Origin: a virus
Lineage: Duplodnaviria; Caudoviricetes
Strand: one strand, 5' to 3'
IMG/VR virus record: IMGVR_UViG_3300014205_000170
Span: 288,001-352,000 of that record
DNA: 64,000 nucleotides
Under the pieces are notes generated by a model that saw only the letters and a list, made by a program, of their open reading frames with translations, made no database searches and was not told the DNA's origin. The translations under genes and the position numbers were made by a program. This document shows positions 2,277-63,273 of this stretch, one piece after another (position 1 is the stretch's first letter; every line of letters begins with the position of its first letter).

Positions 2277-2801
2277 TTAATCGTTTTCACCATATTTTTT
2301 AATGAGCCATTCTGAAATAAAACCTTTATATTTTTGTCTATTTTCTAATGGTAAATTTTTATACGACCCTATTTTTTTTCTACAATTCTCAGCTCCACAA
2401 TTACAATTTAAAACCCAATAGTAAAACGAATCTGGATTTTCAGTATCATTATCCTCGCTCATTTCATAATCCCAAGTTATTTCTTCATCAACTTCAATAT
2501 CTCTCATTGCTACTATTTGAAATAAATTTTTAATCCCGCAATTAGGTTCACACGAATGATTTAAATAAATTGCAAGATTGGTAGCGTATTTCCACTTACC
2601 ATCTTCAAATTGAATACAATGGTCATTTAAATGTTCAGTCCAATCTTTTTGTCCATTTGCCGGAACATTACTTACCACATTTTCATCTGTATATATAGAG
2701 CCTTCAAATTCACTTATGATTTCTCCAGCATTTATTTTGCTTTTGGCAAAAACACCTTTGCCAAATTTAGATTCTCTTAATTCAACTTTTAAATTATCCA
2801 T
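2277..2801 (-). CDS. SET-domain protein-lysine methyltransferase
   Basis: GKGVFA, YLNHSCEPN, EEITWDY and post-SET CNCGAENCR. Confidence 0.9.
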   Translation of the reverse strand: MDNLKVELRESKFGKGVFAKSKINAGEIISEFEGSIYTDENVVSNVPANGQKDWTEHLNDHCIQFEDGKWKYATNLAIYLNHSCEPNCGIKNLFQIVAMRDIEVDEEITWDYEMSEDNDTENPDSFYYWVLNCNCGAENCRKKIGSYKNLPLENRQKYKGFISEWLIKKYGEND

Positions 2802-3124
2802 TATATTCGTTTCTCTGTTATTACATTTCTACTTTCCGCTTCTGCATTAAAGTAAGAAGAAATTCTATCTAATTTTTTATCAATAAATTTTATTCTATCT
2901 AAAAAATGTTTTTGTTGTTTTTCAGTTGTTAAAATAGTTGGGACATTTAAACATTCTACTTTTGTGGGCATATCTCTTACGGGTACAAAAATACTTAATA
3001 CTTGGTCTTCATCCCCATCTTTTAATTGAGCTTCTTTTTTAACACGTCTTATATAATTTCCAACGTCTTCTTGGCTCATATTTCCAACATTCATATAAAA
3101 AACAAGTATAGTTTTGTCCAACAT
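2801..3124 (-). CDS. Hypothetical protein (C-terminal RNVITEK motif)
   Basis: ORF in operon; carries the recurrent motif. Confidence 0.6.
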   Translation of the reverse strand: MLDKTILVFYMNVGNMSQEDVGNYIRRVKKEAQLKDGDEDQVLSIFVPVRDMPTKVECLNVPTILTTEKQQKHFLDRIKFIDKKLDRISSYFNAEAESRNVITEKRI

Positions 3125-3135
3125 TTTAAATCGTA

Positions 3136-3939
3136 TTATTTTTCTTGTTGTGTTTCTTCTTCTTTTTTAACCTCTCTACTAGGCTTAGAAATATGTGCCC
3201 AACATCCATCAACATTTTCAAAACTCATTTCTGATAATTCAATTGGCTTATCATTTAGGTACATTTCGTTGATTTGTTTTTGGTCAGGCCCAGCAATATC
3301 TTTCACGATAACATTATTTGTAAACGAATACATTATGTTCTTCGGAAAAAATTCAAACACTTCTGCCATTTTTTCTTCCAATTCATCAAAATTATTAAAA
3401 GATACTTGTTTTAATAATTTCATAAATTCTTTTGTTCTAAAAATATGACCTTCAGTAGAAAAAGGGAATCCATAATCTAAATAATGCTTTAACCAATCCC
3501 ACTTCATAATTTTATCATCCATAAGAAATGTTTCACCAAATAAAGTATTATTAGTATTCATATTTCTACATACTTTTGTATTTTTTCCTAATCGTAAAGA
3601 AAAACAAAACGCATCTTGGTCTGCATTTAAAATATCAGGGATTGCTGCAAAATTCTCTGGCGAATATAAAATATCATCATCTCTTAAAAACATACTGAAT
3701 TGAGCATTACTTTGAAATAACCTTAAAATACCTTCTTTAAAATTAGAATATCCTGTCCAATTAATATTTAAATCTGAAAATTCTTCTTTTACTTTTTCAT
3801 ATAAAGGTTCAAAATCAGAATTGGCAGAACGATGCATTACATTCAAATTGAATGAGTTTAAAGAATTTTTTCTAATGCTTTGTAGTAAAATCCTTAATCT
3901 CGCTGGATTATTTTCACTTAAAATTACTGTGTTTATCAT
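3136..3939 (-). CDS. Glycosyltransferase-like protein
   Basis: GT-A-like N-terminus, FLRDDDILY, FCFSLRLG; located in the GT cluster. Confidence 0.6.
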   Translation of the reverse strand: MINTVILSENNPARLRILLQSIRKNSLNSFNLNVMHRSANSDFEPLYEKVKEEFSDLNINWTGYSNFKEGILRLFQSNAQFSMFLRDDDILYSPENFAAIPDILNADQDAFCFSLRLGKNTKVCRNMNTNNTLFGETFLMDDKIMKWDWLKHYLDYGFPFSTEGHIFRTKEFMKLLKQVSFNNFDELEEKMAEVFEFFPKNIMYSFTNNVIVKDIAGPDQKQINEMYLNDKPIELSEMSFENVDGCWAHISKPSREVKKEEETQQEK

Positions 3940-3959
3940 ATTGTTTTTTTATATTAATA

Positions 3960-4424
3960 TTACTTATCCAAAATCATATCAAAAGAGATAATATTATGAA
4001 ATTGCACTACATCATTTTCAATAGTTCCTGTTGCTCTCAACGAAGTCCTAATTAAGTTATTCAAATATAATTCATGAATAAATTGAGACTTATCAGTATT
4101 TAAAAATTGAATTGTGCCATACACAACTTTATCTTGAATATATATATTCTTTATTATGTGAGTACTATTTTTAAGGTCAACAACAGTTCCGCTACCACCC
4201 TGTAATTCTTGTGCACCAAAAAATTCTCCCAACAAAAAGTCTGTTGATGTGTTTTTTATACAATCTTCTAATGAAATCCAATTAACTTCTCCATAACCCC
4301 AATAAGGAGATTTAAAATCTGTTAAAAAAACATTTTTAAAAACATTATTGTATTTTTCAAATAAAACTTTTCTATTACCCAAATGCCTATCAACATTTAA
4401 AGTAGTGATTGGAAACATTCCCAT
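3960..4424 (-). CDS. Degenerate prohead protease (T4 gp21-like) paralogue with RKVLFEK tag
   Basis: LLGEF...VDLKNSTHII...VYGTIQFLNT...TSLRATG...IISFDMI follows the gp21 layout, but GELDHP and SSRG are altered. Confidence 0.55.
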   Translation of the reverse strand: MGMFPITTLNVDRHLGNRKVLFEKYNNVFKNVFLTDFKSPYWGYGEVNWISLEDCIKNTSTDFLLGEFFGAQELQGGSGTVVDLKNSTHIIKNIYIQDKVVYGTIQFLNTDKSQFIHELYLNNLIRTSLRATGTIENDVVQFHNIISFDMILDK

Positions 4425-4762
4425 TATAATTCCTCCCTCTCAATCCATTTCCAACCCAAAAAGAAAGCAATTGCAAATCTGTTAAATCTAGTTGGTCTTT
4501 TATTTGACATTAATAAAAGTTGTTTATTTCCACCAGTAACATCATATCCACCTTTGGTATCTTGTGTTTTATTTAAAACGACTCTATCTTGAGTAACCAT
4601 TATTCCACAATTTTGATTAACATTGTTTTGAACAGCAAAAAATACATGATTTGCAACAATGGGATTTGGATTATATTTTTCAAATAATACAATGTTTTTA
4701 CGCTTATTTTTAAGCATCTTTCTTGAAACTTCAAATTTCCTTTTTAAAATCTTGAAAATCAT
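4424..4762 (-). CDS. Hypothetical protein (NIVLFEK motif)
   Basis: ORF in operon. Confidence 0.55.
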   Translation of the reverse strand: MIFKILKRKFEVSRKMLKNKRKNIVLFEKYNPNPIVANHVFFAVQNNVNQNCGIMVTQDRVVLNKTQDTKGGYDVTGGNKQLLLMSNKRPTRFNRFAIAFFLGWKWIEREEL

Positions 4763-5445
4763 TTTTTTAGTTTTTTATATTTCCAAACAAAATTGTTGGA
4801 AGTTTTTAATATACCGCGACAAGCTCTTGAGATACCTGTTGGATTTATATTTAAACCTCTACCCGCTTCTCTAATGCTATTCCACTCTTTTATTAATATT
4901 TTATTTAAATCATATTGCAAAATTGGTTTAGATTTTATTTTTATATTATAATTTGACAAATCCTTTCTAATATTTCCTCGATTAACACTCTTTCCTGTAA
5001 TTGCATTTTTGTGTAATTGTCGCCATTTTTTTTCTCTTCTACATGCTTCTTCTGCTCCATATTTCTCATTCCAAATTTTTAATATCATTGCAACAGAGGG
5101 AGCATTTGCCTTTTTATTGATATTGTACCCATGTTGACTAGAATAAGATTGTTTATAGTTAAGCCAATAATCTTCTCTATTCAACAATAAATTTTCAGAT
5201 ACTGTTTCTAATATTTGAAATTCAAATACTTCTGACCCATATTTATTCCAAGCACGTTGAAGTTTATAATTATTGTGTTTATTTTTAATAAGGGCACGTT
5301 TATGCTGTTTAAATCTCTTGTACATATCATTTGAACTGCCAATATATAATTTTTGACTTAACACATTTATGATAGCATAAATTCCCACTATTTTATTTGT
5401 AACTTTCAATTGTATTAAACTTATTTTTTTTAGTAATTGCTTCAT
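4759..5445 (-). mobile_element. GIY-YIG homing endonuclease with C-terminal NUMOD1-like DNA-binding domain
   Basis: VGIYAIINVLSQKLYIGSS; KPILQYDL...WNSIREAGR...ISRAC; overlaps the 3' end of the upstream GT; start uncertain. Confidence 0.85.
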
Positions 5446-6241
5446 GGCAACTCCATTGTAAATTTTGGTCAACTTTATCATCACTTATAGGATTGTTCCT
5501 ATTATATACATATAAAGCTTTGTCATTATGTTTAGTTTTTTCAAATCCAGCTATTTCTAACAAAGGTAAGAACATACAAACATCATATGCTGATTTATAC
5601 CATTCTCCAGTTGCATCTTTAAAACAATTAAAATCTGGGTCTTGTTTACCAATTTCATGATAAATTCCAGCTCTAAATGTTCTTATATGAGATACTTTAA
5701 ATGGTACTTTTCTTAAGCGCGGAAACTCTTCTTTAGTATATGGTGCTGAACAACACTTTCTTCCATCAGTCCACTTTGAACTTCCGTACATTATCCAACA
5801 ATCATGTTCATTATAATACTCATTGATATATGAAAGTGCATTTTTATTTAATAACCAATCGTCTCCATCTAAAATAACTACAATATCATCAGGGTCAGTA
5901 CAAAAATTCATTACTCCATTATGAATATTGGCAAGTGCTGTATTTCTTTGACTAGAACGCCAAGCCAGTACATTACTACATTTAGTAATTTCCAATAAAG
6001 GATGTTTTTCTATAATAACAGGTTTTCCTTCCTCATCCAATTCTGGAGTTCCATCAGCCTTAGTTTTAAATTTACAATCCGGTATTTTACTATAAGACCC
6101 ATCAGTTGAACAATCATCTATAAACAAAACCTCGTAATTTTCATAATTCTGTGTTAATATAGAATTAATGCACATATCCAAAAATTCGCCTGGATTATAG
6201 AAAGGTACAACAATTTTGATTTTATTTAACTTCTTTTCCAT
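5393..6241 (-). CDS. Glycosyltransferase family 2
   Basis: IVVPFYN, FIDDCSTDGS, LDGDDWL. Confidence 0.9.
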   Translation of the reverse strand: MEKKLNKIKIVVPFYNPGEFLDMCINSILTQNYENYEVLFIDDCSTDGSYSKIPDCKFKTKADGTPELDEEGKPVIIEKHPLLEITKCSNVLAWRSSQRNTALANIHNGVMNFCTDPDDIVVILDGDDWLLNKNALSYINEYYNEHDCWIMYGSSKWTDGRKCCSAPYTKEEFPRLRKVPFKVSHIRTFRAGIYHEIGKQDPDFNCFKDATGEWYKSAYDVCMFLPLLEIAGFEKTKHNDKALYVYNRNNPISDDKVDQNLQWSCHEAITKKNKFNTIESYK

Positions 6242-6346
6242 TTTCGTATTCTATTTTAAACAAAAATATCCTATTTATATATCAAAGTCAAGTTGAAAAA
6301 GGAATATTAAATTTTCCTTCATATTTAATTAAAAGTGTTTAAAAAA

Positions 6347-6769: not shown

Positions 6770-6794
6770 ACAAACAACTATAAAAAAATAAAAA

Positions 6795-8333: not shown

Positions 8334-8350
8334 TTATAGACAACAAAATT

Positions 8351-11360: not shown

Positions 11361-12017
11361 ATGCCATCTGAAAACAAACAAGTAACTACATCTGCACAAT
11401 CTTGTGGAGAACCAATCACTGTGACTGGTGCACTAACAGGAACAATAGGTAATTTAGCGTCGTACAATATTGGTAATCCAGTACAACAATCATTAACATA
11501 TACTGCGCCATCTATAAATTATTTTCAAACAGTTAGTTCACCCGCTACTCCTTTAACTTTTTCAAATCTTTCTACTGATTACAGACTTTCTAAAGAAGGA
11601 GAAATTTATATCGATTCTTCAACAAATGACTGTTTTATATACTTAACAGAGTATGGTGGATGGCTTAGATGTGATATTCAAAAGATTAAAAAATCTTTTA
11701 ATAATAAAGGAGAACAAATAAATACAGTTAAAGTGTCTTTTGATTTTAGTGTAGCTAATCTTAAAAAATATTATCAATTAAGAACAGTATTAACAGAAAA
11801 ATATTCAAAATCAAAAATAGTTATTTATGATTTTGCTAGTAGTTCTACAATTACAAGTGCTTATTCTACATATGTACAACCATCATATATATTAAGTACT
11901 CCACTAGCCGGAACTGCAATTGATTGCACTGCCGGATATATTACCACTGATATTTCAACGGTAATTGGTACAAATTATGTTAATTTCAACAATGCACAAA
12001 CGAGCTGTTTAGCTTAA
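11361..12017 (+). CDS. Hypothetical protein (RTVLTEK motif)
   Basis: ORF in operon. Confidence 0.55.
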   Translation: MPSENKQVTTSAQSCGEPITVTGALTGTIGNLASYNIGNPVQQSLTYTAPSINYFQTVSSPATPLTFSNLSTDYRLSKEGEIYIDSSTNDCFIYLTEYGGWLRCDIQKIKKSFNNKGEQINTVKVSFDFSVANLKKYYQLRTVLTEKYSKSKIVIYDFASSSTITSAYSTYVQPSYILSTPLAGTAIDCTAGYITTDISTVIGTNYVNFNNAQTSCLA

Positions 12018-13406: not shown

Positions 13407-14215
13407 ATGAAACAAATCAGCCTCAATTATGGAGCCATAAGAGATACTATTTTTAAGTATTCTGGAAAACAATTAGTATCAGAAGGTGGTAAATCATCTA
13501 GTATATTAAATTCTTTCTTAAAAAGTGTAAAAGAAATACCAGCACTTAAGCTTCAACATATTGTATTTAAAAATTTAGAAGAAGGTCATTTCACAAAAGA
13601 AAGATTAGCAGAAAGATACATTGCTGAAAATCTAAAAATAATGGAAAGCGTTTCTTGGGATAAGCTTATTGAAGCTAATCGTAATATAAGAATAGGTTTA
13701 TTAGAAAATTGTCACGTAGAAGGAAAAAAGGGTGAATTATACGAAAGTATTCACACTCTTATGGAATCCATATGTAGAAAGGGTTTTACTAATGTAGACC
13801 AATCCAACAAAGCCTATGATGACGTTTTAAATTATCTTTTAAGAGAAATGTTTCAGAAACTACAGCAATTGAGCCGGAAACAGAAGAATTTCCAAAATTA
13901 TTATCCTGGAACTTTGTTACTAATTTAGCCGTAAATAATTTTAACCAAAGATATGCTCATTTGAATGAAAATGAAAAACAACTTTTAAAAGTTCTTCTTT
14001 CAACTAATGAAAATAAAACAAATCACTTAGAAGACCTTAAAAAAGAAAATATTGATTTAATCAACTCTATTTTAAAAACAAATATTGATGAAGAAAGTCA
14101 AAAAGTTCTAATCGGTTTTAAAGAAAATATTGAGTCTAATCTAGCTGAAAACATTGATGATAACATCATTCATTTAGCAGAATTAAGGGACACTTTAATG
14201 GATTTTCAAAACTAA
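13407..14215 (+). CDS. Hypothetical phage protein split by an apparent frameshift near 13845
   Basis: The -1 frame at agagaaatg reads NVSETTAIEPETEEFPKLLSWNFVTNLAVNNFNQRYAHLNENEK, continuous with ORF 13961..14215. Confidence 0.65.
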
Positions 14216-14658
14216 ATTTTCATCTCAATCACATGAGTGGTTGATGTACCACTTACAGTTTGATATATAGGCGTTTGCCAAAAAGAGATTCTTTGTGTTG
14301 TGGAGGTTCCAATACCAATCCCATAAGTCCATAAATCATTAAAATCTTTTACACGAACTTTAAAGGTTTTTTCAACACATACTATTCTAGTTAAAGGCAT
14401 CATATACAATTCCCATTCACAATATTCATTAAAATATGCATTAGAATATAGAGAGCTCTTCTTAATTATATATTTTATTTCATCATTTTCATAAATAACT
14501 GATTCAATAACTCCTTCTCCTGTATTAAAACCTTTAAACCCAACCACATCACCTACTTTAAAAAAAGGTTTTGGCATTCGTTTAGGCATGAAACTTTTAA
14601 AATGATTTTTTTTATCTTTTAAAATTAATTGTTTTTTATTAAACTTAGATTTGTTCAT
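14212..14658 (-). CDS. Hypothetical protein (KOW/SH3-like; RIVCVEK motif)
   Basis: FKVGDVVGFK. Confidence 0.5.
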   Translation of the reverse strand: MNKSKFNKKQLILKDKKNHFKSFMPKRMPKPFFKVGDVVGFKGFNTGEGVIESVIYENDEIKYIIKKSSLYSNAYFNEYCEWELYMMPLTRIVCVEKTFKVRVKDFNDLWTYGIGIGTSTTQRISFWQTPIYQTVSGTSTTHVIEMKI

Positions 14659-14879
14659 TTTTTTTCAAACAAAATCATTCTTTTTAAAGGTTGTGCGATA
14701 AAATATTCTGCTGCACCAAACGTTTCTGGTTCTGGTTGTTGAAAATAAAATACATTATATGAATTAATTCTTTGAAACATATAATAATCTTCAACTTTAT
14801 TATACTCTTTCGTCACTCTATATAGATGTTTTTGATTGTCTCGACTTAAAACAATATCTCCAAATTCAAATCTACCCAT
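14655..14879 (-). CDS. Hypothetical protein (C-terminal RMILFEKK)
   Basis: Start placed at MGRFEFGDIV. Confidence 0.5.
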   Translation of the reverse strand: MGRFEFGDIVLSRDNQKHLYRVTKEYNKVEDYYMFQRINSYNVFYFQQPEPETFGAAEYFIAQPLKRMILFEKK

Positions 14880-15483
14880 TTTCAATAAATGTTGAATATT
14901 GCATAGCCATAGCCTTCGCAATACCCGGAAAAGTTTTACTTCTTAATTTAGCGCGGTCTTCTGTTGGTGATAAACGATGTAATCTTTGTTCTCTACCAGC
15001 TACTATATTAGTAGGGGTTAATAATGGTAAATTTTTTAACCATAAACAAGTTGCTTTAGTTTCTCCATGTCCAAACATCCAAGGTTGTAATACTTGGTCT
15101 GGCTTTCTAAATTCACTGCTCATTACACCAATAGGATTTTCAATTGCAATTCTTGGAATTTCACAATTATACAAATCCATAAAAAATTTTATTGCTTCTA
15201 CTCTTGCTGCTCTTCTTTCTGCACCAACTAAAGTACCGGATTTTCTTGGAGGTTGGTCTTTGTACCATTTATTAGCACTAATAGTCAAATAAGTGCAAGG
15301 TGGAAAAAATATTGCCAAATCCCATTGTTTCATTCTTATTGCTTCAAACACATCCATTTGTAAATGCCACTCAGGATGCCCTCCGGAACATTCTAACATA
15401 TCATTACTATATGCTTCATGTCCTAATGCTCTAAACGCTTTGCACACTTCTTGACTCTCTTCACAGCCTAATAATACTTTCAT
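14872..15483 (-). CDS. DNA cytosine methyltransferase-like protein
   Basis: VLLGCEES, FPPCTY, IENPIG, RSKTFPGIA. Confidence 0.75.
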   Translation of the reverse strand: MKVLLGCEESQEVCKAFRALGHEAYSNDMLECSGGHPEWHLQMDVFEAIRMKQWDLAIFFPPCTYLTISANKWYKDQPPRKSGTLVGAERRAARVEAIKFFMDLYNCEIPRIAIENPIGVMSSEFRKPDQVLQPWMFGHGETKATCLWLKNLPLLTPTNIVAGREQRLHRLSPTEDRAKLRSKTFPGIAKAMAMQYSTFIENG

Positions 15484-16326: not shown

Positions 16327-16797
16327 TTATTTTTTTAAAAAATACATATAAGTAGAAGTGGGGAACAAAGATTTTTCGAACAAAACTGTACGACTATTCA
16401 TTGTGGAAACGATAGATTTTATTGTATTAATAATAGAATCAATTTTAAAACCAGAAAGATATCCTGATACAGGAGTGCCTCCAATAACATAAGCACCACA
16501 GTGCTTAATAACACTATAATCAACATCATCTAAATAAGTTTCATAATCAGAAGAAGTCACATCTTCATTCACAACAATAGTTCCTTTATTGTTATAATAA
16601 ATTAATATTTCAAATTCATCATAGTCTGTTAATAATTCTAACGTTTTTCGTGGGTTTGAGTAATGACCTGAACTAGCTTGAATAGAAATAACAAATCCTT
16701 CTCCTAAATCTACATGAGAATTCATTCCATAACCATGTTCAATTTTACGCTCTTTTATTAGAGGAATGAAATCAAATTTATTTATTTCTGGTATCAA
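16327..16797 (-). CDS. Hypothetical protein (RTVLFEK motif)
   Basis: ISIQASSGHYSNPR; motif near the C-terminus. Confidence 0.55.
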   Translation of the reverse strand: MIPEINKFDFIPLIKERKIEHGYGMNSHVDLGEGFVISIQASSGHYSNPRKTLELLTDYDEFEILIYYNNKGTIVVNEDVTSSDYETYLDDVDYSVIKHCGAYVIGGTPVSGYLSGFKIDSIINTIKSIVSTMNSRTVLFEKSLFPTSTYMYFLKK

Positions 16798-20533: not shown

Positions 20534-20767
20534 TCAAAATGAAACAACACCATATAGATTATGGTTCACTTGAATTTTAGCATATCTAGAAGTTACTTTT
20601 TTAGATGGAGTAAAATCATCCACAATAATTGACGTATTATACATAGGTATATAAGGAGCAAAAATATAACCTGCCTCATATTCAAATCGTTTACGTTTTT
20701 TTTCAAACAATACTTTTCGAGTATATGAATCTTTATTTTCTTTTATAATATTATGATGGAAATTCAT
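20534..20767 (-). CDS. Major-capsid-protein C-terminal fragment homologue with RKVLFEK tag
   Basis: EAGYIFAPYIPM...FTPSKKVTSRYAKIQVNHNLYG resembles the C-terminus of gp23-family capsid proteins. Confidence 0.65.
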   Translation of the reverse strand: MNFHHNIIKENKDSYTRKVLFEKKRKRFEYEAGYIFAPYIPMYNTSIIVDDFTPSKKVTSRYAKIQVNHNLYGVVSF

Positions 20768-21113
20768 TTACTTTTTCCTTTTTTAAATTCAAAACTTACA
20801 CTAGTATTTCCTTCAAAAGCAACTATCGTATTTTTTGGAGACAAAACAACTAAATTAAGGTCATTTGAGATTTTTTCAAATAAAACCATTTTTTTATATA
20901 ATGTTGTTATAGTTCCTTCCACTATTATTTTGTTTTAAAAATATTTATTGCGTCTAATGTTAAAAGTAATAATTTTCTTGTCATTCCCCAATAGATTTTC
21001 ATTCTTTTCAAAAAACTAATTGAAATTTCTTCTGTCTTCTCAATAATAACAAAACGCGTATTGTCATGCATTATTAAATCAAAATCTTCTGGCTTTTCAA
21101 CAAAATCTCTCAT
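20764..21113 (-). CDS. Hypothetical protein with apparent frameshift near 20935 (two VxxEK motifs)
   Basis: ORF 20925..21113 continues in the -1 frame as KIIVEGTITTLYKKMVLFEKISND...KKGKSK*. Confidence 0.45.
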
Positions 21114-29268: not shown

Positions 29269-29274
29269 ATATTA

Positions 29275-43424: not shown

Positions 43425-44207
43425 ATGAAAAATGTCTTATTAATCATTGACCCTCAAAATGATTTTTGTTTACCAACCGGAAGTCTTTATGTTAAAGGAG
43501 CCGATAAGGATATGGAACGATTAGCTTCTTTTATATTAAAAAATATAGAACATATTGACGAAATACATGTTAGTCGTGATATGCATAATTATGATGACAT
43601 TGCTCATGCAAGGTATTGGAAAAATTTTAATGGAGAACTTCCAAAACCTTTTACTAATATCACAGTAGATGATATGAAAAATGGAATTTGGACAACAGCA
43701 AAAGAAGAAGATTATGAAATTGCATTGAAGTATCTTCAAACATTAAAAGATAAAAATAAATTTACACATACAATTTGGCCAGACCATTGTGTTCATGGGA
43801 CAACAGGATTTCAACTTTTCCCTGCTTTAAATGATGTTTTGAATATTTGGGAAGGAAAAACCGAAAAATCTTATATCGTTTATGTTAAAGGAATGAATAG
43901 AAATACGGAACATTTTGGAATGTTTCAAACAGAAGACGATTCAGAAGAATTTAATGAACAAGCATTTAGAAATATTTTTTCAAAAGCGGATAATGTATTT
44001 GTTTCTGGGGAAGCAAAATCACATTGTGTTGCAACTTCTTTACAACAAATAATGGAGCGTGATTCCGAGATGATTTCAAAAATTACCTTATTAACTGATG
44101 CAACATCAGATGTTGAGGGGTTAGGGCATTTAGCAAGTCCTATCTATAAAAAATTACGCGCAAAAGGAATGAAAGAAAATACTACAATAGAAATCACTCT
44201 TGATTAA
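43425..44207 (+). CDS. Nicotinamidase/isochorismatase-family hydrolase
   Basis: IIDPQNDF, WPDHCVHGT, GEAKSHCV. Confidence 0.88.
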   Translation: MKNVLLIIDPQNDFCLPTGSLYVKGADKDMERLASFILKNIEHIDEIHVSRDMHNYDDIAHARYWKNFNGELPKPFTNITVDDMKNGIWTTAKEEDYEIALKYLQTLKDKNKFTHTIWPDHCVHGTTGFQLFPALNDVLNIWEGKTEKSYIVYVKGMNRNTEHFGMFQTEDDSEEFNEQAFRNIFSKADNVFVSGEAKSHCVATSLQQIMERDSEMISKITLLTDATSDVEGLGHLASPIYKKLRAKGMKENTTIEITLD

Positions 44208-44958
44208 TCCATTTACTATAATACAAGGATTTGACGCAAACTTAGCTGAAAACGGTAAAGTAATTGCTATTGCTTCTAGTGCAGCAGGTGGTAGAACTAC
44301 TACTGCTAGTTCTTTAATATATCATTATATAAATCTAGGAATCAATGTTTTTTTATTTTCAGAAGATAAAAAACATTCTGATGTTTTGTTAGAAGAAATT
44401 AAAAATCAAAAAACAGAAAATCAAAATATAGGTTGTTTAATTACGTTTTCTGTTGAAAATTTAAATTATTACTATATTAATGAAAATATTAGAAAAAATC
44501 TACGTTTTTTAACAGGCAATAGTATTGTTGTTATAGATAATAGCTTTTATGAAATATCATTAAAATTTTTTAGCGAAAGGCCAGAAAATGTATTTAGTCG
44601 TTTTGTGTTAACTGAAAAAACTATTATTCTAGATGAATCAAAATCAGATATATTTTATCAAACTCTTTTAAATAAAAAAAGATTTTTGGAACATATAAGA
44701 AAAATAGCATATAACTTTAATATACCAGTTATATTAACAGCCCAGCAAATAAGAACTACAAATAGCAATACTGATTATTTTGGTACTACATTAATGTATA
44801 TGTGTGATGTGTATCTACAATCAGAGAAACTAACAAACAATAGAAAATTTAATTTAAAAGTTATAAAAAGCAGATACGCATCAGCTGCCCAAAATGTTAT
44901 TTGTGAAATTGATGCGAAAAAGTTAATGTTTGTAACAAATTCAAGGATTTTACGTTAA
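44200..44958 (+). CDS. Degenerate RecA/DnaB-like P-loop protein (RFVLTEK motif)
   Basis: Decayed Walker A (AGGRTT), IVVID, IPVILTAQQ, VIKSRY. Confidence 0.55.
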   Translation: MINPFTIIQGFDANLAENGKVIAIASSAAGGRTTTASSLIYHYINLGINVFLFSEDKKHSDVLLEEIKNQKTENQNIGCLITFSVENLNYYYINENIRKNLRFLTGNSIVVIDNSFYEISLKFFSERPENVFSRFVLTEKTIILDESKSDIFYQTLLNKKRFLEHIRKIAYNFNIPVILTAQQIRTTNSNTDYFGTTLMYMCDVYLQSEKLTNNRKFNLKVIKSRYASAAQNVICEIDAKKLMFVTNSRILR

Positions 44959-52969: not shown

Positions 52970-53248
52970 ATGAAAACATTCATTATAAAATATAAATGTC
53001 AATTTTGTTCTCGGTTAAACTTTGAAAAACCGATGCCTCATAAATGTGTTGGTGGTTATCGAAGAAGAAAACTCATTTGGCACCAATATTTAGTACCTAA
53101 CCAAATTGTTCTGGTTGAAAAATTTTTCCCCGATAATCCAAGAAAAAACGATTATTATTTCATTTTAAAAAACACATTACCATTTTTTTCTTTAAATTCG
53201 TATCTAATAAAACGAAAAGGAGAAAAAAATAATGAAGAAACTATTTAA
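52970..53248 (+). CDS. Hypothetical protein (QIVLVEK motif)
   Basis: CxxC...HxC. Confidence 0.45.
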   Translation: MKTFIIKYKCQFCSRLNFEKPMPHKCVGGYRRRKLIWHQYLVPNQIVLVEKFFPDNPRKNDYYFILKNTLPFFSLNSYLIKRKGEKNNEETI

Positions 53249-54056
53249 AAATGACTGGGTTTCATTTTACATTGGTATTGACAGAAGTAGGTTTACTTTA
53301 AGTCCAGCTTCTTATTTTGATGAAAGATTCTACATCATTTTAACCCCAACTCTATTAATTCCTATTATAGGTGTGTTTTTTACCGGTTTAAGCTTCTGGT
53401 CTCTTGTATGGTTATTATTCATTCCATATGGTTATGGATGTCTATATATTCATCTTCCTATATATTCAGGTCTTGACGAATGTGACCCTCCGGAATATGG
53501 TTTTTATTTTTTTGGAGAAAATCTTTTAAGAATAAATTCATTTGTTGTTTGTAGGGGGAAAACTAGTAATAAATACTTTAACATGCCATGGTATTGGGTT
53601 TGGGAACGAACTAGTAAATTAAAAAAAGATGGTACTTGGCAACATGATTTGAGAAAAAAGAAATTTGATTTTTATACTAAAGAATGGGAAAACGAAGTTT
53701 GGAAAGAAGAATATCCGTTTACTTATATTTTAAAGAATGGTAATATACAACAAAGACTAGCGATAATTACTGTGCATGAAATGGAATGGCGTTGGAAAGC
53801 TTTAAAAATTTTACCATTTCCACGGATGATTCGTAAAAGTATCGATATTCAATTTGAATATGGGGGTCCAATTGAAAGAGAAATATTTTTTGAAAAACAA
53901 GGAAATAAATCCAAGTATTTAGAAAAATACACCGGAGAAGTTGGTGAAAGAACTGGAGGTTGGAAAGGCGGAACCACTGGGTGTAGTTACAGTATGCGAC
54001 AAAATGAAACTCCTCTTGAAACTTTAAGAAGAATGGAAAAAGAAAGAAAATTTTAG
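53232..54056 (+). CDS. Hypothetical membrane protein (REIFFEK motif)
   Basis: Transmembrane segment; GEVGERTGGWKGG. Confidence 0.6.
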   Translation: MKKLFKNDWVSFYIGIDRSRFTLSPASYFDERFYIILTPTLLIPIIGVFFTGLSFWSLVWLLFIPYGYGCLYIHLPIYSGLDECDPPEYGFYFFGENLLRINSFVVCRGKTSNKYFNMPWYWVWERTSKLKKDGTWQHDLRKKKFDFYTKEWENEVWKEEYPFTYILKNGNIQQRLAIITVHEMEWRWKALKILPFPRMIRKSIDIQFEYGGPIEREIFFEKQGNKSKYLEKYTGEVGERTGGWKGGTTGCSYSMRQNETPLETLRRMEKERKF

Positions 54057-56081: not shown

Positions 56082-56168
56082 GCCTTCGTGGTGAAATTGG
56101 ACAGAGACACAAGGGTCTTAAAAACCCTCGGATTTAATTCCATGCGGATTCGAGTTCCGCCGAAGGTA
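56082..56168 (+). tRNA. tRNA-Leu(TAA)
   Basis: agggt-ctTAAaa-accct; long variable arm. Confidence 0.9.
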
Positions 56169-56181
56169 CAAAAAAAGAGAA

Positions 56182-56349
56182 ATGGGAAAAGTAGAAAAGA
56201 AAAAATTAAGATTACAAGAAAGGATTCAAACTTTAGAAAATGAATTAAGAACTTCTTTGACAAAAAAAACATCTGATGTAAAAGAAATCAATGTTGCTGT
56301 TCATCAAAGAAAAATTTATGATTTAAAATTAGAATTACAAAAAATGTAA
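56182..56349 (+). CDS. Small coiled-coil protein within the tRNA array (55 aa)
   Basis: MGKVEKKKLRLQERIQTLENELR...LELQKM*. Confidence 0.55.
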   Translation: MGKVEKKKLRLQERIQTLENELRTSLTKKTSDVKEINVAVHQRKIYDLKLELQKM

Positions 56350-56355
56350 CAACAC

Positions 56356-56429
56356 GCCTTCGTAGCACAACGGATTAGTGTCTCTGTTTTCTAAACAGGT
56401 GGGTGGAGGTTCGAATCCTCTCGAAGGTA
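56356..56429 (+). tRNA. tRNA-Arg(TCT)
   Basis: tctgt-ttTCTaa-acagg; ggttcgaatcc. Confidence 0.88.
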
Positions 56430-56449
56430 CAAATGGTTCTTTGACATAT

Positions 56450-56534
56450 GCCAGAATGGTGAAATCGTGTAGACACACCATCCTCAAAAGATGGCGCTAT
56501 AAAAAGCGTGAGAGTTCGAATCTCTCTTCTGGTA
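56450..56534 (+). tRNA. tRNA-Leu(CAA)
   Basis: ccatc-ctCAAaa-gatgg; variable arm. Confidence 0.9.
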
Positions 56535-56539
56535 CAATA

Positions 56540-56614
56540 GCTCCCTTAGCTCAGCTGGTTAGCAGCATCAGACTCATAATCTGAGGGTCGTTGGTTCGAG
56601 CCCAACAGGGAGCA
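56540..56614 (+). tRNA. tRNA with CAT anticodon (Met or Ile2)
   Basis: tcaga-ctCATaa-tctga. Confidence 0.9.
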
Positions 56615-56619
56615 CAAAT

Positions 56620-56704
56620 GTTACGGTATGCAAACTGGCTGAAGCACCTAGATTTTCAATCTAGTTTCGAAAGAAAATTGCAGGTTCGAACCCCGTCCGT
56701 AATA
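56620..56704 (+). tRNA. tRNA with TTC (Glu) anticodon and long variable arm
   Basis: ctaga-ttTTCaa-tctag; extra arm tttcgaaagaaa. Confidence 0.75.
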
Positions 56705-56709
56705 CAAAT

Positions 56710-56784
56710 GGCCACATAGCTCAATCGCGTTGGAGCAGGATGCTTATATCATCAAGGTTGGGAGTTCAAATCTCTCTGTGGCTA
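56710..56784 (+). tRNA. tRNA-Ile(TAT)
   Basis: gatg-ctTATat-catc; acceptor ggccaca/tgtggct. Confidence 0.8.
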
Positions 56785-56797
56785 CAAAAAAATAAAT

Positions 56798-56879
56798 GCT
56801 CCGTTGGCGGAATGCAGACGCACTTGGCTTAGGACCAAGCTCTCGAAAGGGAATGAAGATTCGAATTCTTCACGGAGTA
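56798..56879 (+). tRNA. tRNA-Leu(TAG)
   Basis: cttgg-ctTAGga-ccaag; variable arm. Confidence 0.9.
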
Positions 56880-56959
56880 CAAAATTGTTCTTTGAATATT
56901 TGAAATACATGTTATTTTAGAAATATAGTGTGTATAACATTTTTTGTCTATTTATAATC

Positions 56960-57421
56960 ATGAGAAATGATATAATAAAACAAAAAAAAATAATTTTGAA
57001 ATTAATAAATGAAAATAGACCAAAATCATTTATTTGTAAGTTTTTAGATTGTAGACCTCTTACGTTAGATAATTATTTAAAAAAGTGGAACATAAATTAT
57101 GTTGGGAATAAAGGAGGAAAGGGATATAAAATTTCACCGATAAAAAAAACAGCTATTCAATATATGAATAGCACTGGACATATAAGTTCTTATAAATTAG
57201 GGAAAAAACTTATAGAAGATGGATTAAAAGAAAAAAAATGCGAATGTTGTAATTTAACAAAATGGATAAATAAAGACATACCTTTAGAATTACATCACAA
57301 AGATGGAAATAGGTTTAATAATGAATTACAAAATTTACAATTATTATGTCCTAATTGTCATGCTTTAACTGAAAATTATGGTAGCAAAAATAAAAAAAAT
57401 AAAAATGGCCCATTCGTCTAG
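56960..57421 (+). mobile_element. HNH homing endonuclease inserted in the tRNA array
   Basis: CECC...LELHHKDGN...NLQLLCPNCH; 3' end overlaps tRNA-Glu. Confidence 0.88.
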
Positions 57422-57479
57422 GGGTTTAGGACGCTGCCCTTTCACGGCAGAAACACGGATTCGAATTCCGTATGGGCTA
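57407..57479 (+). tRNA. tRNA-Glu(TTC)
   Basis: ctgcc-ctTTCac-ggcag. Confidence 0.92.
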
Positions 57480-57488
57480 CAATAAAAT

Positions 57489-57561
57489 GCTCTTATCGAC
57501 AAGTGGTTTAAGTCACCGCTTTCTCAAAGCGGAGTCACGGGTTCAAGTCCCGTTAAGAGTA
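57489..57561 (+). tRNA. tRNA-Glu(CTC)
   Basis: ccgct-ttCTCaa-agcgg. Confidence 0.88.
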
Positions 57562-57566
57562 CAAAT

Positions 57567-57645
57567 GCCGATGTGATGTAATGGTAGCCATACTGGTTTA
57601 AGAAGCCAGTGCGAAAGCGTTTCGGTTCGAGTCCGAACATCGGTA
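57567..57645 (+). tRNA. tRNA-Leu(AAG)
   Basis: ctggt-ttAAGaa-gccag; short extra arm gcgaaagc. Confidence 0.85.
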
Positions 57646-57661
57646 CAAAAAAAGGAAAAAA

Positions 57662-57991
57662 ATGGAAACAACAGAAGTAAAAATTAATGCAATCGAAGTA
57701 AAAAAAGAACTGTATAAAAGTAAGGTAAATGCAAAATTAAGTCATTTTGACAAACCAAACTTGTATTACACAGTAGAATTGTCTACGGGAACATATCAGT
57801 TTCCTATTGCAACTACTGTAAAAAAAACATTAACTCTAATGGATGGAGATGAAGTTATTTCAATGTTTGACATTGATAAAGCTGCTCCGGACTTAGCAGG
57901 CGCTAACTTTGGTTTAGAGGTAAAAGCCTCTGATTTGAACCGTTGGATTGAGAGAGCAATAAAGAACGACGATTTTATAAAAATCAGTTAG
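57662..57991 (+). CDS. Hypothetical protein
   Basis: ORF. Confidence 0.55.
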   Translation: METTEVKINAIEVKKELYKSKVNAKLSHFDKPNLYYTVELSTGTYQFPIATTVKKTLTLMDGDEVISMFDIDKAAPDLAGANFGLEVKASDLNRWIERAIKNDDFIKIS

Positions 57992-58028
57992 TAGATTTTT
58001 TTGTGTTTATATTTATATATAAACGCAA

Positions 58029-58442
58029 ATGAAAAAATTTCTGTTAATATTTTTTATAGTTTTAAGTTTAGCGTGCAAATCTCAAACTAAAAATTTGTGG
58101 CAAAAAATTCCAGATGACGCAAAACATGTTTATTCTGGTGTGATAATTACAATGGTAACTGGTGATTTAGTTTATAAATATTCAAAAGGAAGAACAGGAT
58201 TAGCGGTAGGAGTTGGTTTTTTATCAGGAGTAACCGCAGGAGTGGCAAAAGAATTGATATGGGACAAGTGGATGGGAAAAGGCGTTCCGAGTAAGTGGGA
58301 TGCATTTAGTACTGCGTGGGGAGCAGGAATAGGCACTATATCACTTAGGGTAATGATAGATGTTAGAGAACGAAAGCAGTATGATGAATACTCAATAGAA
58401 AAATTAGGTAAAAAGAAAAAAAGAAGACATAGAAATGGTTAA
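58029..58442 (+). CDS. Putative lipoprotein/membrane protein (YfiM-like)
   Basis: Lipobox-like SLAC, DDAKH, GVAKELIWD, WDA. Confidence 0.6.
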   Translation: MKKFLLIFFIVLSLACKSQTKNLWQKIPDDAKHVYSGVIITMVTGDLVYKYSKGRTGLAVGVGFLSGVTAGVAKELIWDKWMGKGVPSKWDAFSTAWGAGIGTISLRVMIDVRERKQYDEYSIEKLGKKKKRRHRNG

Positions 58443-58515
58443 CATAACAATTAATATTCAACAACAACAGCAACAACAAACTCTAAATAAGGGTTCCGGA
58501 ATTGCTTTGTCTTGA
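58435..58515 (+). CDS. Poly-Gln attenuator leader peptide (26 aa)
   Basis: MVNITINIQQQQQQQTLNKGSGIALS*; 6 CAA + 1 CAG. Confidence 0.88.
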   Translation: MVNITINIQQQQQQQTLNKGSGIALS

Positions 58516-58537
58516 CGTTATTAATTTAACAAATTAC

Positions 58538-58571
58538 AAAAAGCCTGGAACTTAAAGTTTCAGGCTTTTTT
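58538..58571 (+). terminator. Attenuator terminator upstream of the tRNA-Gln cluster and GlnRS
   Basis: aagcctggaact/agtttcaggctt plus T-run; the 5' arm can pair with ggttccgg in the leader. Confidence 0.88.
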
Positions 58572-58577
58572 ATTTAT

Positions 58578-58648
58578 TGTCCTATAGTGTAATGGCAGCA
58601 CAAGAGATTTTGACTCTCTTAGTCTAGGTTCGAGTCCTAGTGGGACAA
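58578..58648 (+). tRNA. tRNA-Gln(TTG)
   Basis: agaga-ttTTGac-tctct. Confidence 0.92.
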
Positions 58649-58653
58649 CATAT

Positions 58654-58725
58654 TCCTCGTTGGTCTAATGGCAATGACGTTGGTTTTTGACACCAAAAGT
58701 GGTAGTTCGATTCTATCACGAGGAA
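58654..58725 (+). tRNA. tRNA-Gln(TTG)
   Basis: ttggt-ttTTGac-accaa. Confidence 0.88.
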
Positions 58726-58730
58726 CAAAT

Positions 58731-58803
58731 TGCTCCATAGTATAATGGCCTATTATCGCTGCCTTTGAAGCAGAAGACCTTGGTTCGATTCCAAGTGGAG
58801 CAT
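58731..58803 (+). tRNA. tRNA-Gln(TTG)
   Basis: ctgc-ctTTGaa-gcag. Confidence 0.88.
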
Positions 58804-58810
58804 CTAAAAT

Positions 58811-58883
58811 TGCCTTATAGTATAATGGTTATTATTCTCGTTTCTGAGACGATGAGATGTTGGTTCGAATCCAGCTTAGGTAA
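58811..58883 (+). tRNA. tRNA-Gln(CTG)
   Basis: tcgt-ttCTGag-acga. Confidence 0.82.
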
Positions 58884-58906
58884 CAAACAAAAAAAATCGT
58901 AACTTT

Positions 58907-59392: not shown

Positions 59393-59394
59393 TT

Positions 59395-61011: not shown

Positions 61012-61146
61012 GAGAAAAGTAGTTAATTCTATAAAAATCATATTTTTTTGAACATTTTCAATGTTAAGTTTTTTATATATTGCTTTTTTTCATATATTTG
61101 TTTATATTTATCTAACATACAGATAACAATTTAATAACACAGAAAT

Positions 61147-61542: not shown

Positions 61543-61558
61543 TGCTAAAACATATATT

Positions 61559-61593
61559 TAAAAGGGTTAAAATTAAGGTTTTAACCCTTTTTT
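61559..61593 (+). terminator. Intrinsic terminator
   Basis: aaagggttaaaa/ttttaacccttt plus T-run. Confidence 0.75.
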
Positions 61594-61669
61594 ATTGTAA
61601 TAAACTTTTAGCTGGGTTTTTCGTTTAAATTATATTGAAATATCATTATTTTTTAGTATTTTTGACATC

Positions 61670-61978
61670 GTGGAGCAGATAAATAATTTCCAACCTAAAG
61701 TAGTGTGGGATAATAATTTTTTTTTAAACAAACTTACAAGGGAAGTTTTTATAGAAAAGATTTTTTTGCACATAAAATATGCTGTTTTAAATGAATGGAA
61801 ACGAGAAAATGGAATACTTTCTTTTTCTATAAAAACAAAATGTGATTTTTGTAAAAAAGAATCAACTGCAATTTTTGATTATGGTTCTAAAAAGAGTAAT
61901 AAAACATTAGGAGTTTGTATTTATTGTGATGAATTAATTATATGTTGGAGTAAATATTTTAATGGAAGAATCAACTAA
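61670..61978 (+). CDS. Zinc-finger hypothetical protein (REVFIEK motif)
   Basis: CDFC...CIYC. Confidence 0.45.
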   Translation: MEQINNFQPKVVWDNNFFLNKLTREVFIEKIFLHIKYAVLNEWKRENGILSFSIKTKCDFCKKESTAIFDYGSKKSNKTLGVCIYCDELIICWSKYFNGRIN

Positions 61979-62765
61979 ATATTCACGTACATTACACTTT
62001 CCAATTTCGAAGGGAACAACTTCGGATGATAGAATATTGTCCGCTGGGTACTTAGATATTGTTTCTAAGATGAATCTAATTGTTACTGAAAAATTAGATG
62101 GTCAAAATGATTGTTTAAAAAAAGATGGAGTTTTTGCGAGGTCACACACAGCTCCTAGTGCGCATCCTTGGGATAAACCTTTGTGGGATAGATGGAATTT
62201 AATTAAGAACGATTTAAAAGACCTTGAAATATTTGGAGAAAACATGTATGGAATACATTCAGTGGCTTATAGTAAACTTGAATCATTTTATTATGTTTTT
62301 GCAGTAAGAGAAAAAGGAGTTTGGCTTTCTTGGGAAGAAGTTAAATTTTATGCAGCAATGTTGGATTTTCCAGTTGTACCTGAGTTAAAATATGATAATA
62401 CACTTTCTTCATTTGTTAATCCTAAAAAATCAGAGAATGATTGTTTGAAAGAATGGTTACAATCGTTTTTAAAAATGGATTGGGAAGATTACACAAACAC
62501 TTCCGGAGCATTAGGTGGTTATAATCCAAAAAACAATAACAAGCCAGCATGTGAAGGTTTCGTAATTAGAAATTCAACTGCATTTAAAACAAATGATGGA
62601 ATTATAAAAACGCAACCAAATGAATTTCGCAATGTGTTTAAATTAGTTAGAGGAGGCCATGTTCAAACAGATGAACATTGGACTAAAAATTGGCAACCAG
62701 CTACATTAATTAACGGTGAAAAATATGGTTGGTATGGATATGAAAACAATTATAAAAATAAATAA
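61962..62765 (+). CDS. ATP-dependent RNA ligase family protein
   Basis: KYSRTLH, TEKLDGQN (motif I), FGENM, EGFVIR, FKLVR. Confidence 0.85.
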   Translation: MEESTKYSRTLHFPISKGTTSDDRILSAGYLDIVSKMNLIVTEKLDGQNDCLKKDGVFARSHTAPSAHPWDKPLWDRWNLIKNDLKDLEIFGENMYGIHSVAYSKLESFYYVFAVREKGVWLSWEEVKFYAAMLDFPVVPELKYDNTLSSFVNPKKSENDCLKEWLQSFLKMDWEDYTNTSGALGGYNPKNNNKPACEGFVIRNSTAFKTNDGIIKTQPNEFRNVFKLVRGGHVQTDEHWTKNWQPATLINGEKYGWYGYENNYKNK

Positions 62766-62767
62766 AA

Positions 62768-63273
62768 ATGAAAATAAGTACACTTTTTAAATATATTGCA
62801 CTTGTGTGTTGTATTACGAATTTGATTTCATCAATTATTTGGTCTTTTGTAGTACATGATTATAATAAAGCTTATGAAAGGTCAGAAATGGCAATGGTCT
62901 TTTTGCTATTTTATGGTGTTTTATATACTATAGATAAAAATAAATGTCAGAAACCATAATTAAAACAATTCATAAAGTAAGAGTTTCTGGTAGATGGGTT
63001 GAGTTTTGGTTTAAAGAAAATTTATCTAAAGACAAAAATTACAAAAGTGAATGGGGAGAGTTTATAGGAGAAGAGTGTTTCCATGCTTGTGTAAAAATTA
63101 GTAAGTTATTTCAGGTTTTGAACGAAAAAGAAAATGAACCCATAAGAGAAGAAATGGTAGCAGCAAAACTTAAGAACATTAAGACGGTTTGGGTACATAG
63201 TCACTTTAAAGGTAATTTAGAATTTGTAAGTTTTTTAGAGGGGGTACGAACAGTTTTAATAGAAAAAAAATAA
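62768..63273 (+). CDS. Two small hypothetical proteins (62768-62959 membrane protein; 62944-63273 ending RTVLIEKK)
   Basis: Overlapping ORFs in operon. Confidence 0.5.

Follow-up and report, generated by a model that had tools for sequence, protein, structure and literature searches.

A strict short peptide motif carried by about 190 mostly unrelated small proteins of a half-megabase phage

A short peptide motif, R-x-[VI]-[LFI]-x-E-K (hereafter the tag), recurs in small proteins encoded by a 64,000-nucleotide stretch of viral DNA (hereafter the window), bases 288001-352000 of the IMG/VR record IMGVR_UViG_3300014205_000170. The tag is a portable short linear motif on which purifying selection acts at the protein level. 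In the evolution of one megaphage lineage it was grafted again and again, as a rule in one copy per protein, onto leaders at the N-terminus, tails at the C-terminus or loops at the surface. Some 190 accessory proteins carry it; they are small, soluble and fast-evolving, and most of them are unrelated to one another. A preliminary description of the window had proposed a phage-wide short linear tag, selected at the protein level, in unrelated small proteins, and the analysis of the whole genome supported this proposal well. Because the motif is strict and its placement free, it looks like a label, and we infer that one common partner reads it.

The record is the genome of an uncultured T4-like phage, is 518,809 bp long with direct terminal repeats, is rated complete, and has a G+C content of 30%. 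The window contains tail and packaging genes, numerous small open reading frames (ORFs) and 14 tRNA genes; no useful or close relative of it was found among GenBank phages by megablast and blastn. Positions given below refer to the window unless they are preceded by the word genome.

Enrichment, consensus and carriers of the tag

Matches were counted in 839 heuristic ORF-proteins of the whole genome, with within-protein shuffling as the background (300 shuffles for the window). Either the strict motif given above was used or a relaxed form, on which the counts of 195 matches and 191 proteins are based. In the window, the strict motif yielded 12 matches, whereas the 300 shuffles averaged 0.11 and never exceeded 2; the relaxed motif yielded 14 compared to 0.45. 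A blind k-mer count ranked VLFEK as the top 5-mer across distinct window proteins, with 6 occurrences versus about 0.02 expected from composition. Across the whole genome, 134 strict matches were found in 132 of the 839 proteins, compared to 1.24 in shuffles, and 195 relaxed matches were found in 191 proteins (23% of the set), compared to 4.55. The shuffle comparison, a check that the preliminary description had asked for, placed the motif above compositional background. In a six-frame scan, 136 of 139 matches were located inside ORFs of at least 60 amino acids (aa), almost always in the sense frame of called genes.

Position-by-position substitution across the genome gave the consensus [T]-[RK]-x-[VI]-[LIF]-[IFTLV]-E-K. 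Arg occupied the first position of the core in 134 copies, and Lys was its only accepted substitute (32 observed versus 3.4 expected); Asn and Gln at this position were at background frequency. The variable residue was followed by Val or Ile and then by Leu, Ile or Phe, with a few Met or Cys, and Cys at the Leu/Ile/Phe position was itself enriched genome-wide (5 versus 0.07 expected). The fifth position was hydrophobic or Thr, and for the final Glu and Lys every alternative residue was at background. A Thr directly preceding the Arg was enriched 5.4-fold, and the residues flanking the motif carried almost no information. Codons for Arg, Val, Leu, Ile, Glu and Lys within the motif followed genome-wide usage, including the alternation of AGA with CGN codons for Arg and of TTR with CTN codons for Leu, which confirms that synonymous codons vary and that conservation is at the protein level, as had been noted from the window.

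The tagged proteins of the window demonstrated nothing in common beyond the motif, and the 191 tagged proteins of the genome fell into 153 clusters in an all-against-all BLASTP comparison. They were small: 157 of 474 proteins of 75-200 aa were tagged, none of 72 at 300-500 aa and 3 of 55 above 500 aa, in line with the earlier remark that the motif was not seen in core enzymes or core virion proteins. A protein almost always carried a single copy. Tags were located within 35 residues of the N-terminus in 61 cases, within 35 residues of the C-terminus in 104 and internally in 30, so that 85% were near an end, as had also been observed for the window; in some proteins the tag started at residue 2, and in others it formed the last residues. 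Membrane-like segments were predicted in 1.6% of tagged proteins versus 8.5% of untagged proteins of similar size, and tagged proteins were slightly more basic than untagged ones.

A Pfam and PHROGs scan of 135 tagged proteins returned scattered matches only, and nearly all of the tagged proteins could not be named in this way. The named families were Acb3, a CBASS inhibitor (53232-54056), and Tad3, a Thoeris inhibitor (genome 268856-269506), with a weak second copy of Tad3 also among the tagged proteins. The other named carriers were two tail-tube paralogues, one fragment of the terminase large subunit, three fragments of the phage's own capsid protein (including 20534-20767) and a diverged prohead-protease-like protein (3960-4424). 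Local tandem families were also present, with 12 genes between 49 and 70 kb and another 10 between 505 and 508 kb, and almost every one of these genes is tagged.

Repeated grafting of the tag within one phage lineage

The alignment of tagged proteins to untagged homologues, which the preliminary description had likewise suggested, placed the tag on added segments, as in the Acb3 homologue (Pfam Acb3, E 6e-37). This protein aligned end to end with its homologue in a relative without tags (G008) save for a 25-residue gap that held the tag. Among 120 database homologues of Acb3, the 21 closest had a 24-residue tagged insert at that site, and the other 99 had a median of zero residues there. The 21 closest homologues were 46-60% identical over the full length (two shorter fragments, 58-70%), and in these orthologues the Arg, Val/Ile, Leu/Ile/Phe, Glu and Lys positions were kept while the x positions varied freely, giving REIFFEK, REVIVEK, RFVLLEK, RMILFEK, RYVILEK and RNVLVEK. 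The Acb3 homologue on another contig (L232) was without that insert and had the tag RNVLLEK on an insert of about 20 residues in a different loop. Thus, the Acb3 fold gained the tag twice, at different places.

An AlphaFold2 model of the Acb3 homologue had a mean predicted local distance difference test (pLDDT) score of 93.7. The tag insert, at about residues 209-233, was its least confident part (pLDDT about 79) and was modelled mostly as coil with one helical turn, following a long strand; the tag itself corresponds to residues 216-222 of 274. No Protein Data Bank match to the Acb3 homologue was found by sequence search. The same protein has a second insert, at about residues 35-65, with about 27 hydrophobic residues and modelled helices at 39-51 and 55-63, which is not present in the L232 homologue; it may be a membrane hairpin.

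Other families demonstrated the same pattern. The two tail-tube paralogues matched one untagged gene of another relative, G001, and their tags were located in a 45-residue N-terminal extension in one and in a 25-residue insert near the C-terminus in the other. In the Tad3 homologue the known domain spanned about residues 12-135 and the protein ended at residue 216 in the tag, and the Tad3 orthologues on two other contigs were likewise terminated by the tag. The three capsid-protein fragments had their tags on inserts of 19-26 residues or at their ends, and a truncated copy of the terminase N-terminal domain ended in a tag. In ORF 3960-4424 the tag precedes a body that is a diverged prohead-protease-like domain with the catalytic His and Ser positions substituted (PHROG head maturation protease, E 1.4e-4 in a scan of the tagged window proteins; BLASTP to the S77 protease of the phage, E 0.001). 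Similarly, the rest of ORF 20534-20767 copies the C-terminal 65 or so residues of the phage's own major capsid protein (47% identity to capsid residues 440-506, BLASTP E 2e-15; Pfam Gp23 match).

The tag was conserved in orthologues. Contigs L007 and L008, whose capsid proteins were 89-90% identical to that of this phage, encode orthologues of ORFs 61670-61978 and 62944-63273 and of genome 354258-354488 that were 39-47% identical, with the tag kept at the aligned place. The L008 orthologue of 61670-61978 (39% identity) had TREILVEK aligned to the tag, and the L007 and L008 orthologues of 62944-63273 (45-47% identity) ended in TRIVLFEKVK and TRIVLIEKIKCLI. Set against the capsid identity, these values indicate that the tagged proteins evolve fast and the tag does not. 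An AlphaFold2 model of ORF 62944-63273, based on three sequences, had a mean pLDDT of 51.6, too poor to judge exposure of its C-terminal tag. Further tag-bearing contigs were reached through other genes: L102, L103, L230 and L231 had 4-8 tags per approximately 20 kb, and L232 had one.

Seven relatives were tag-less (G001-G006 and G008). In G001-G005, which have genomes of 222-388 kb (two of them complete) and capsid proteins 67-82% identical to that of this phage, the back-translated pattern was matched 0-2 times, the level of a reversed-pattern control, versus 82 times here; AT-rich relatives (26-34% G+C) had 0-2 matches, equal to the same control. Thus, the tag was present at a capsid identity of 89-90% and not at 82% or below. 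The present genome is 130-300 kb larger than the tag-less G001-G005, and homologues in G001 were found for 11 of the 191 tagged proteins compared to 136 of all 839 proteins. As the tag was not found in the relatives and few tagged proteins have homologues in G001, the tag and most of its carriers are a recent, lineage-specific development.

De novo gapped k-mer enrichment found no comparable tag of another sequence in G001, G003, G006 or G008; the search brought up only zinc-ribbon CxxC patterns in G003 and, in G006, a weak HGDxYDY pattern. Loci of 22 kb surrounding M41 genes were too small for this type of search. In one such locus of another megaphage (L196, 22 kb), MKIRxGFVSN was common to 8 of 37 ORFs, representing either a tandem family or another tag of similar kind. 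Untagged genes that were shared with the tag-bearing contigs and absent from four tag-less genomes were limited to PAPS-reductase-like, PcfJ-like, DUF6642, DUF7873 and nucleotidyltransferase genes and unknowns. No obvious peptide-binding candidate emerged from this phylogenetic profiling, which had low power with only about 80 kb of tag-bearing sequence.

The matches in the window are listed in Table 1, together with three protease genes elsewhere in the genome that are considered in the next section. All 16 peptides named in the preliminary description were located in the ORFs it had given, with one correction: KMVLFEK had been assigned to a shifted frame of ORF 20925, and it lies in a neighbouring ORF of its own. 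NIVLFEK may be a degenerate copy of the tag, because Asn at position 1 is at background genome-wide, and QIVLVEK is possibly another, because the same holds for Gln. KPVIIEK is probably a chance match and not a tag, judging from the G001 orthologue of its ORF, which is 55% identical over the whole protein and has EPIVESK in that place. The G001 orthologue of ORF 2801-3124 (30% identity, tag-less) ends in NELLIEKK where the window protein ends in RNVITEKRI; this ending could be coincidental or could represent a forerunner of the tag. ORF 2801-3124 as a portal clip and ORF 25061-25504 as a tube copy found no support in PHROGs or Pfam at E of 1e-3 or below.

Table 1. Matches to the tag and its variants in the window, and AAA+ protease genes elsewhere in the genome
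Feature	Coordinates (strand)	ORF and length	Location or match
RNVITEK	2810-2830 (-)	2801-3124, 107 aa	2 residues from C-terminus
RKVLFEK	4353-4373 (-)	3960-4424, 154 aa	residues 18-24
NIVLFEK (variant, no Arg/Lys first)	4676-4696 (-)	4424-4762, 112 aa	near N-terminus
KPVIIEK	6005-6025 (-)	5393-6241, 282 aa	
RTVLTEK	11781-11801 (+)	11361-12017, 218 aa	internal, residues 141-147
RIVCVEK (variant)	14368-14388 (-)	14212-14658, 148 aa	
RMILFEK	14661-14681 (-)	14655-14921, 88 aa	1 residue from C-terminus
RTVLFEK	16372-16392 (-)	16327-16797, 156 aa	14 residues from C-terminus
RKVLFEK	20699-20719 (-)	20534-20767, 77 aa	residues 17-23
KMVLFEK	20872-20892 (-)	20764-20922, 52 aa	own small ORF
RFVIIEK	21036-21056 (-)	20925-21113, 62 aa	
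RKVLFEK	25451-25471 (-)	25061-25504, 147 aa	residues 12-18
RFVLTEK	44599-44619 (+)	44200-44958, 252 aa	internal
QIVLVEK (variant, no Arg/Lys)	53102-53122 (+)	52970-53248, 92 aa	
REIFFEK	53877-53897 (+)	53232-54056, 274 aa	in 24-25-residue insert of Acb3 homologue
REVFIEK	61739-61759 (+)	61670-61978, 102 aa	residues 24-30
RTVLIEK	63247-63267 (+)	62944-63273, 109 aa	1 residue from C-terminus
ClpC-like	genome 173917-175938		AAA_2 E 6e-66, two ATPase modules
ClpP	genome 172443-173189		E 1e-61
AAA + Peptidase_M41, FtsH-like, soluble	genome 484139-486160	673 aa	E 1.4e-14, HEAGH motif, no membrane segment seen

Several other features of the window and the genome were recorded. The 14 tRNA genes form a cluster at 56082-58884 on the plus strand (Leu x4, Glu x3, Gln x4, Arg, Met and Ile). 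A 1613-aa protein (28276-34116) has several internal repeats that also match a neighbouring 330-aa protein (BLASTP E down to 4e-15), and it is probably a fibre or another repeat-built tail protein. A two-part promoter-like motif, AAGTGTAAC and TCGTATAGTAC separated by about 16 bases, was located 10-40 bases before 48 gene starts at genome 1-46000 and 516000-518809, nearly all on one strand and adjoining the terminal repeat; the genes behind it are probably an early gene block. Four of these 48 genes were tagged, and the promoter classes did not settle the expression timing of tagged genes. The box TATATTTG was found upstream of 37 genes genome-wide, a 5.7-fold enrichment upstream of genes, and fits TAnnTTTG, which we take to be the -7 promoter element of Bacteroidota and a hint at the phylum of the host.

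Candidate readers of the tag

The preliminary description had named three functions, a signal for packaging into the capsid or for injection, a head-protease site after Glu, and a docking motif for one hub protein, all of which are candidates here. We tentatively favour the T4-type head-assembly machinery as the reader, with cargo loading and cutting after Glu. The phage has a T4-type head module just past the right end of the window, with a Gp23-family major capsid protein (Pfam Gp23, E 3.5e-76, genome 355905-357212; gene 355857-357416), a Peptidase_S77 prohead protease (E 2.9e-32, genome 359153-359566; gene 358997-359665) and, between the two genes, an acidic 491-aa scaffold-like protein (genome 357450-358925), in the T4 order. 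The reader would be the S77 protease and/or the scaffold core, which would bind the tag as an extended strand, its Leu/Ile in P3 and its Glu in P1 as at gp21-type sites. The prohead would take in the tagged proteins as a large internal payload destined for ejection, and terminal tags would then be cut after Glu, as happens in T4 to the capsid targeting sequences of the internal proteins and to the propeptides at both ends of Alt.

The preferred site of T4 gp21 is Leu/Ile-x-Glu. In all 134 strict copies of the tag, [LIF]-[IFTLV]-E matches the gp21-type pattern (hydrophobic-x-Glu) at the sequence level. A paralogue that copies capsid residues 19-107 has a 19-residue tag insert exactly at the ...H-M-L-N-E (then V-T-L-D) of the capsid proteins of this group, which we presume to be the maturation site from the position of the T4 gp23 cut. 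Cleavage after Glu is common to T4 gp21 and the related enzymes of giant phages (PMC5694885). In T4, the internal proteins are directed by a capsid targeting sequence of 10 residues, of which residues 8 and 10 govern processing; these proteins are hypervariable and include an anti-restriction protein, Alt is trimmed at its N- and C-termini, and gp21 is itself expected to be trimmed at its C-terminus (PMC9026906).

Several observations weigh against this reading. Homologues of the head genes were present in the tag-less G001, G003 and G008 (protease 51-65% identical), and the H-M-L-N-E site was identical in the capsid loci of the tag-less G001, G002, G003 and G005; therefore, the head machinery alone does not call for a tag. 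The Arg and Lys were as invariant as the Glu, beyond what a gp21-type site requires. Some of the 104 C-terminal tags had only 0-3 residues after the Lys, and the 30 internal ones were located in loops, as in Acb3, where cutting would cleave a folded domain. About 23% of all genes would need to be head cargo. A tagged gene was the first behind the CTATTTAT box, which precedes head and tail operons, in only 2 of 26 cases, and many tagged genes were located in long same-strand runs adjoining the early-promoter region. The tail-tube paralogues were also tagged, and in T4-like phages tails assemble separately from heads.

The main rival reading, which we consider possible but doubtful, is that a cytosolic hub uses the tag as a docking handle or degron, the best candidate for the hub being an AAA+ protease of the phage itself. 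Tagged proteins would be removed at set times, or they would act as adaptors: their variable bodies, such as immune inhibitors and decoy copies of virion proteins, would bind host targets, and the shared handle would bring the complex to the hub. AAA+ degrons and adaptor tethering peptides sit near termini, on flexible leaders and tails, which is where 85% of the tags were found, on variable leaders and tails; placement in a loop fits docking and is awkward for cleavage. The phage encodes candidate enzymes, namely the ClpC-like, ClpP and AAA-M41 proteins of Table 1. Between the ClpC and ClpP genes is a 228-aa gene (genome 173195-173881) with the tag variant RDVMIEK and a hydrophobic N-terminal segment, and in the tag-less G001 the ClpC and ClpP genes are directly adjacent. 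Among the cargo are Acb3, Tad3 and inactive copies of capsid protein, protease, terminase and tube, and bacterial immune sensors are known to be triggered by capsid, terminase and tail-tube proteins. On the other side, ClpC and ClpP were also present in G001, and the tag resembled none of the degrons that could be tested.

The distribution of AAA-M41 gave a mixed result. Homologues (56-63% identity) were present on the tag-bearing contigs L102 and L103, with 4 tags per 22 kb each, so that three tag-bearing lineages have the gene, and no homologue was found in the tag-less G001-G005. However, L102 and L103 had been found through M41, which biases the co-occurrence, and the gene was also present in the tag-less G008 (326 kb, complete; 40% identical) and G006 (46% identical). 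The M41 family was widespread in phage contigs of 200-480 kb, with 1881 homologues and 78 IMG/VR loci. AAA-M41 was therefore rejected as a lineage-specific reader; being widespread in megaphages and present in G006 and G008, it is not sufficient.

It is improbable that the reader is an untagged 156-aa paralogue of the prohead protease that is catalytically dead (genome 270303-270773) and would serve as a hub, shield or chaperone. Such a paralogue would keep the gp21-type groove and hold hydrophobic-x-Glu peptides without cutting them. Aligned to the active S77 enzyme, it had lost the catalytic His and Ser positions (ECAI for ECDHP; PKGKG for SSRGVG), and it was also without the N- and C-terminal parts of the active enzyme, which counts against this candidate. 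The family (150-165 aa, with the near-invariant block PKGKGAVKNQ...VQDDYELYGFN) was far better conserved than the tagged proteins, with 44-81% identity and nearly invariant blocks across 53 database proteins, and none of its 54 members was tagged. The gene is flanked by a PcfJ-like gene, and close homologues (71-78% identity) were found on tag-rich contigs with 6 and 8 tags per 20 kb, adjoining the tagged Tad3. Against this, an orthologue was present in the tag-less G001 (44% identity), indicating that the dead paralogue predates the tag, and a 48%-identical one was located on a contig with no tag in 20 kb. A predicted complex of the dead paralogue with the tagged ORF 62944-63273 had run scores of 0.00, 0.84 and 0.00, obtained without controls, and counts neither for nor against this candidate.

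The remaining explanations do without a separate reader. That the motif is the core of one divergent superfamily of small proteins (a fold element or active site) or a self-association strand is less probable still. The tandem families described above are consistent with it; Arg, Glu and Lys are typical functional residues, and the alternating pattern would suit a beta-strand. However, a fold element would hardly start at residue 2 in some proteins and form the last residues of others, be found on families as unrelated as Acb3, Tad3, tail tube, capsid and terminase fragments and a dead protease, or be located in inserts missing from untagged homologues and, within a single fold, in different loops; the 153 clusters, the nearly uninformative flanks and the placement at different ends in paralogues of one gene also speak against it. 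We give almost no credence to a DNA or RNA signal (promoter, binding site, recombination junction or mobile mini-element) or an AT-rich compositional artefact: although tags cluster near gene ends and starts, and Lys, Glu, Ile, Leu and Phe codons are common at 30% G+C, the shuffles produced 1.2 matches versus 134, nearly all six-frame matches lay inside ORFs, AT-rich relatives stayed at control level, and third positions and six-fold codon families varied as in the rest of the genome, a pattern that a nucleic-acid signal cannot yield.

Meaning of the tag and comparison with known systems

Taken together, between a fifth and a quarter of the genes of this half-megabase phage encode proteins with one strict label of 7-8 residues, which was grafted onto existing proteins repeatedly and independently. 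Whatever its reader, the label unites about 190 proteins of unknown function in a single functional class and thereby turns a large part of the megaphage dark matter into a testable set, and it offers a ready-made handle for pull-downs to find the reader. The distribution among relatives shows that a tag of this kind can emerge and spread across an accessory proteome within a short evolutionary distance. If the tag does serve packaging or delivery, it would offer a compact means of loading foreign proteins.

The composition of the cargo would fit an anti-defence role. It is conceivable, although rather unlikely in our estimate, that the tag is the common handle of a bait-and-handle counter-defence system, in which about 190 proteins bind different host targets and are coupled to one phage machine. 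The baits would then, at the same low likelihood, include the CBASS and Thoeris inhibitors, together with those copies of capsid, protease, terminase and tail-tube proteins that are dead or truncated. As the machine, an AAA+ protease or the dead protease paralogue could serve, or else the prohead, which would be loaded in advance and inject its content; the machine would destroy, sequester or deliver the targets.

No published description of such a tag was found in full-text literature searches. To our knowledge, portable targeting peptides in phages are known only on a very small scale, chiefly as the capsid targeting sequence of T4. Outside phage heads, AAA+ degrons and adaptor peptides, such as ssrA and the XB peptide of SspB that is read by the ClpX N-domain, are likewise short, near-terminal and flexible and are read by one machine. 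In contrast to these, the tag is also found in loops, its candidate machines are also encoded in tag-less genomes, and no match to a degron sequence was shown. Encapsulin cargo-loading peptides are short, C- or N-terminal, carried by unrelated cargo, and dock inside an HK97-fold shell; they differ in having another consensus, few enzyme cargoes and no protease step, and in not being from phages.

In the giant phages phiKZ, 201phi2-1 and SPN3US, many proteins are loaded into the head and cut after Glu, and their propeptides are thought to target the prohead (PMC5694885, PMC7411985). There, however, the motif is A/S/G-x-E, three residues and statistically inconspicuous, the propeptides are N-terminal and more than 100 residues long, and the processed set, established by mass spectrometry, is a few dozen virion proteins; no counterpart of a strict tag of 7-8 residues on a quarter of the proteome has been described for them.

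The capsid targeting sequence of T4, found on IPI-III and Alt and removed by gp21 (PMC9026906, PMC5694885), differs in being N-terminal only, about 10 residues long, confined to a handful of proteins, and loose in its residues, with no Arg or Lys needed. The present tag has five near-invariant positions and is carried by about 190 proteins in N-terminal, C-terminal or loop positions, so that leaders of the T4 kind account for 61 copies versus 104 C-terminal and 30 internal ones, and it is absent from relatives with the same head genes. The two are alike in that a short portable peptide, which in T4 can be moved to foreign proteins, ends in hydrophobic-x-Glu and is shared by small proteins that are otherwise unrelated and evolve fast, in a phage whose capsid is of the Gp23 type and whose protease is an S77 enzyme. 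The T4 cargo also includes a protein directed against host defence, and T4 Alt is trimmed at both termini.

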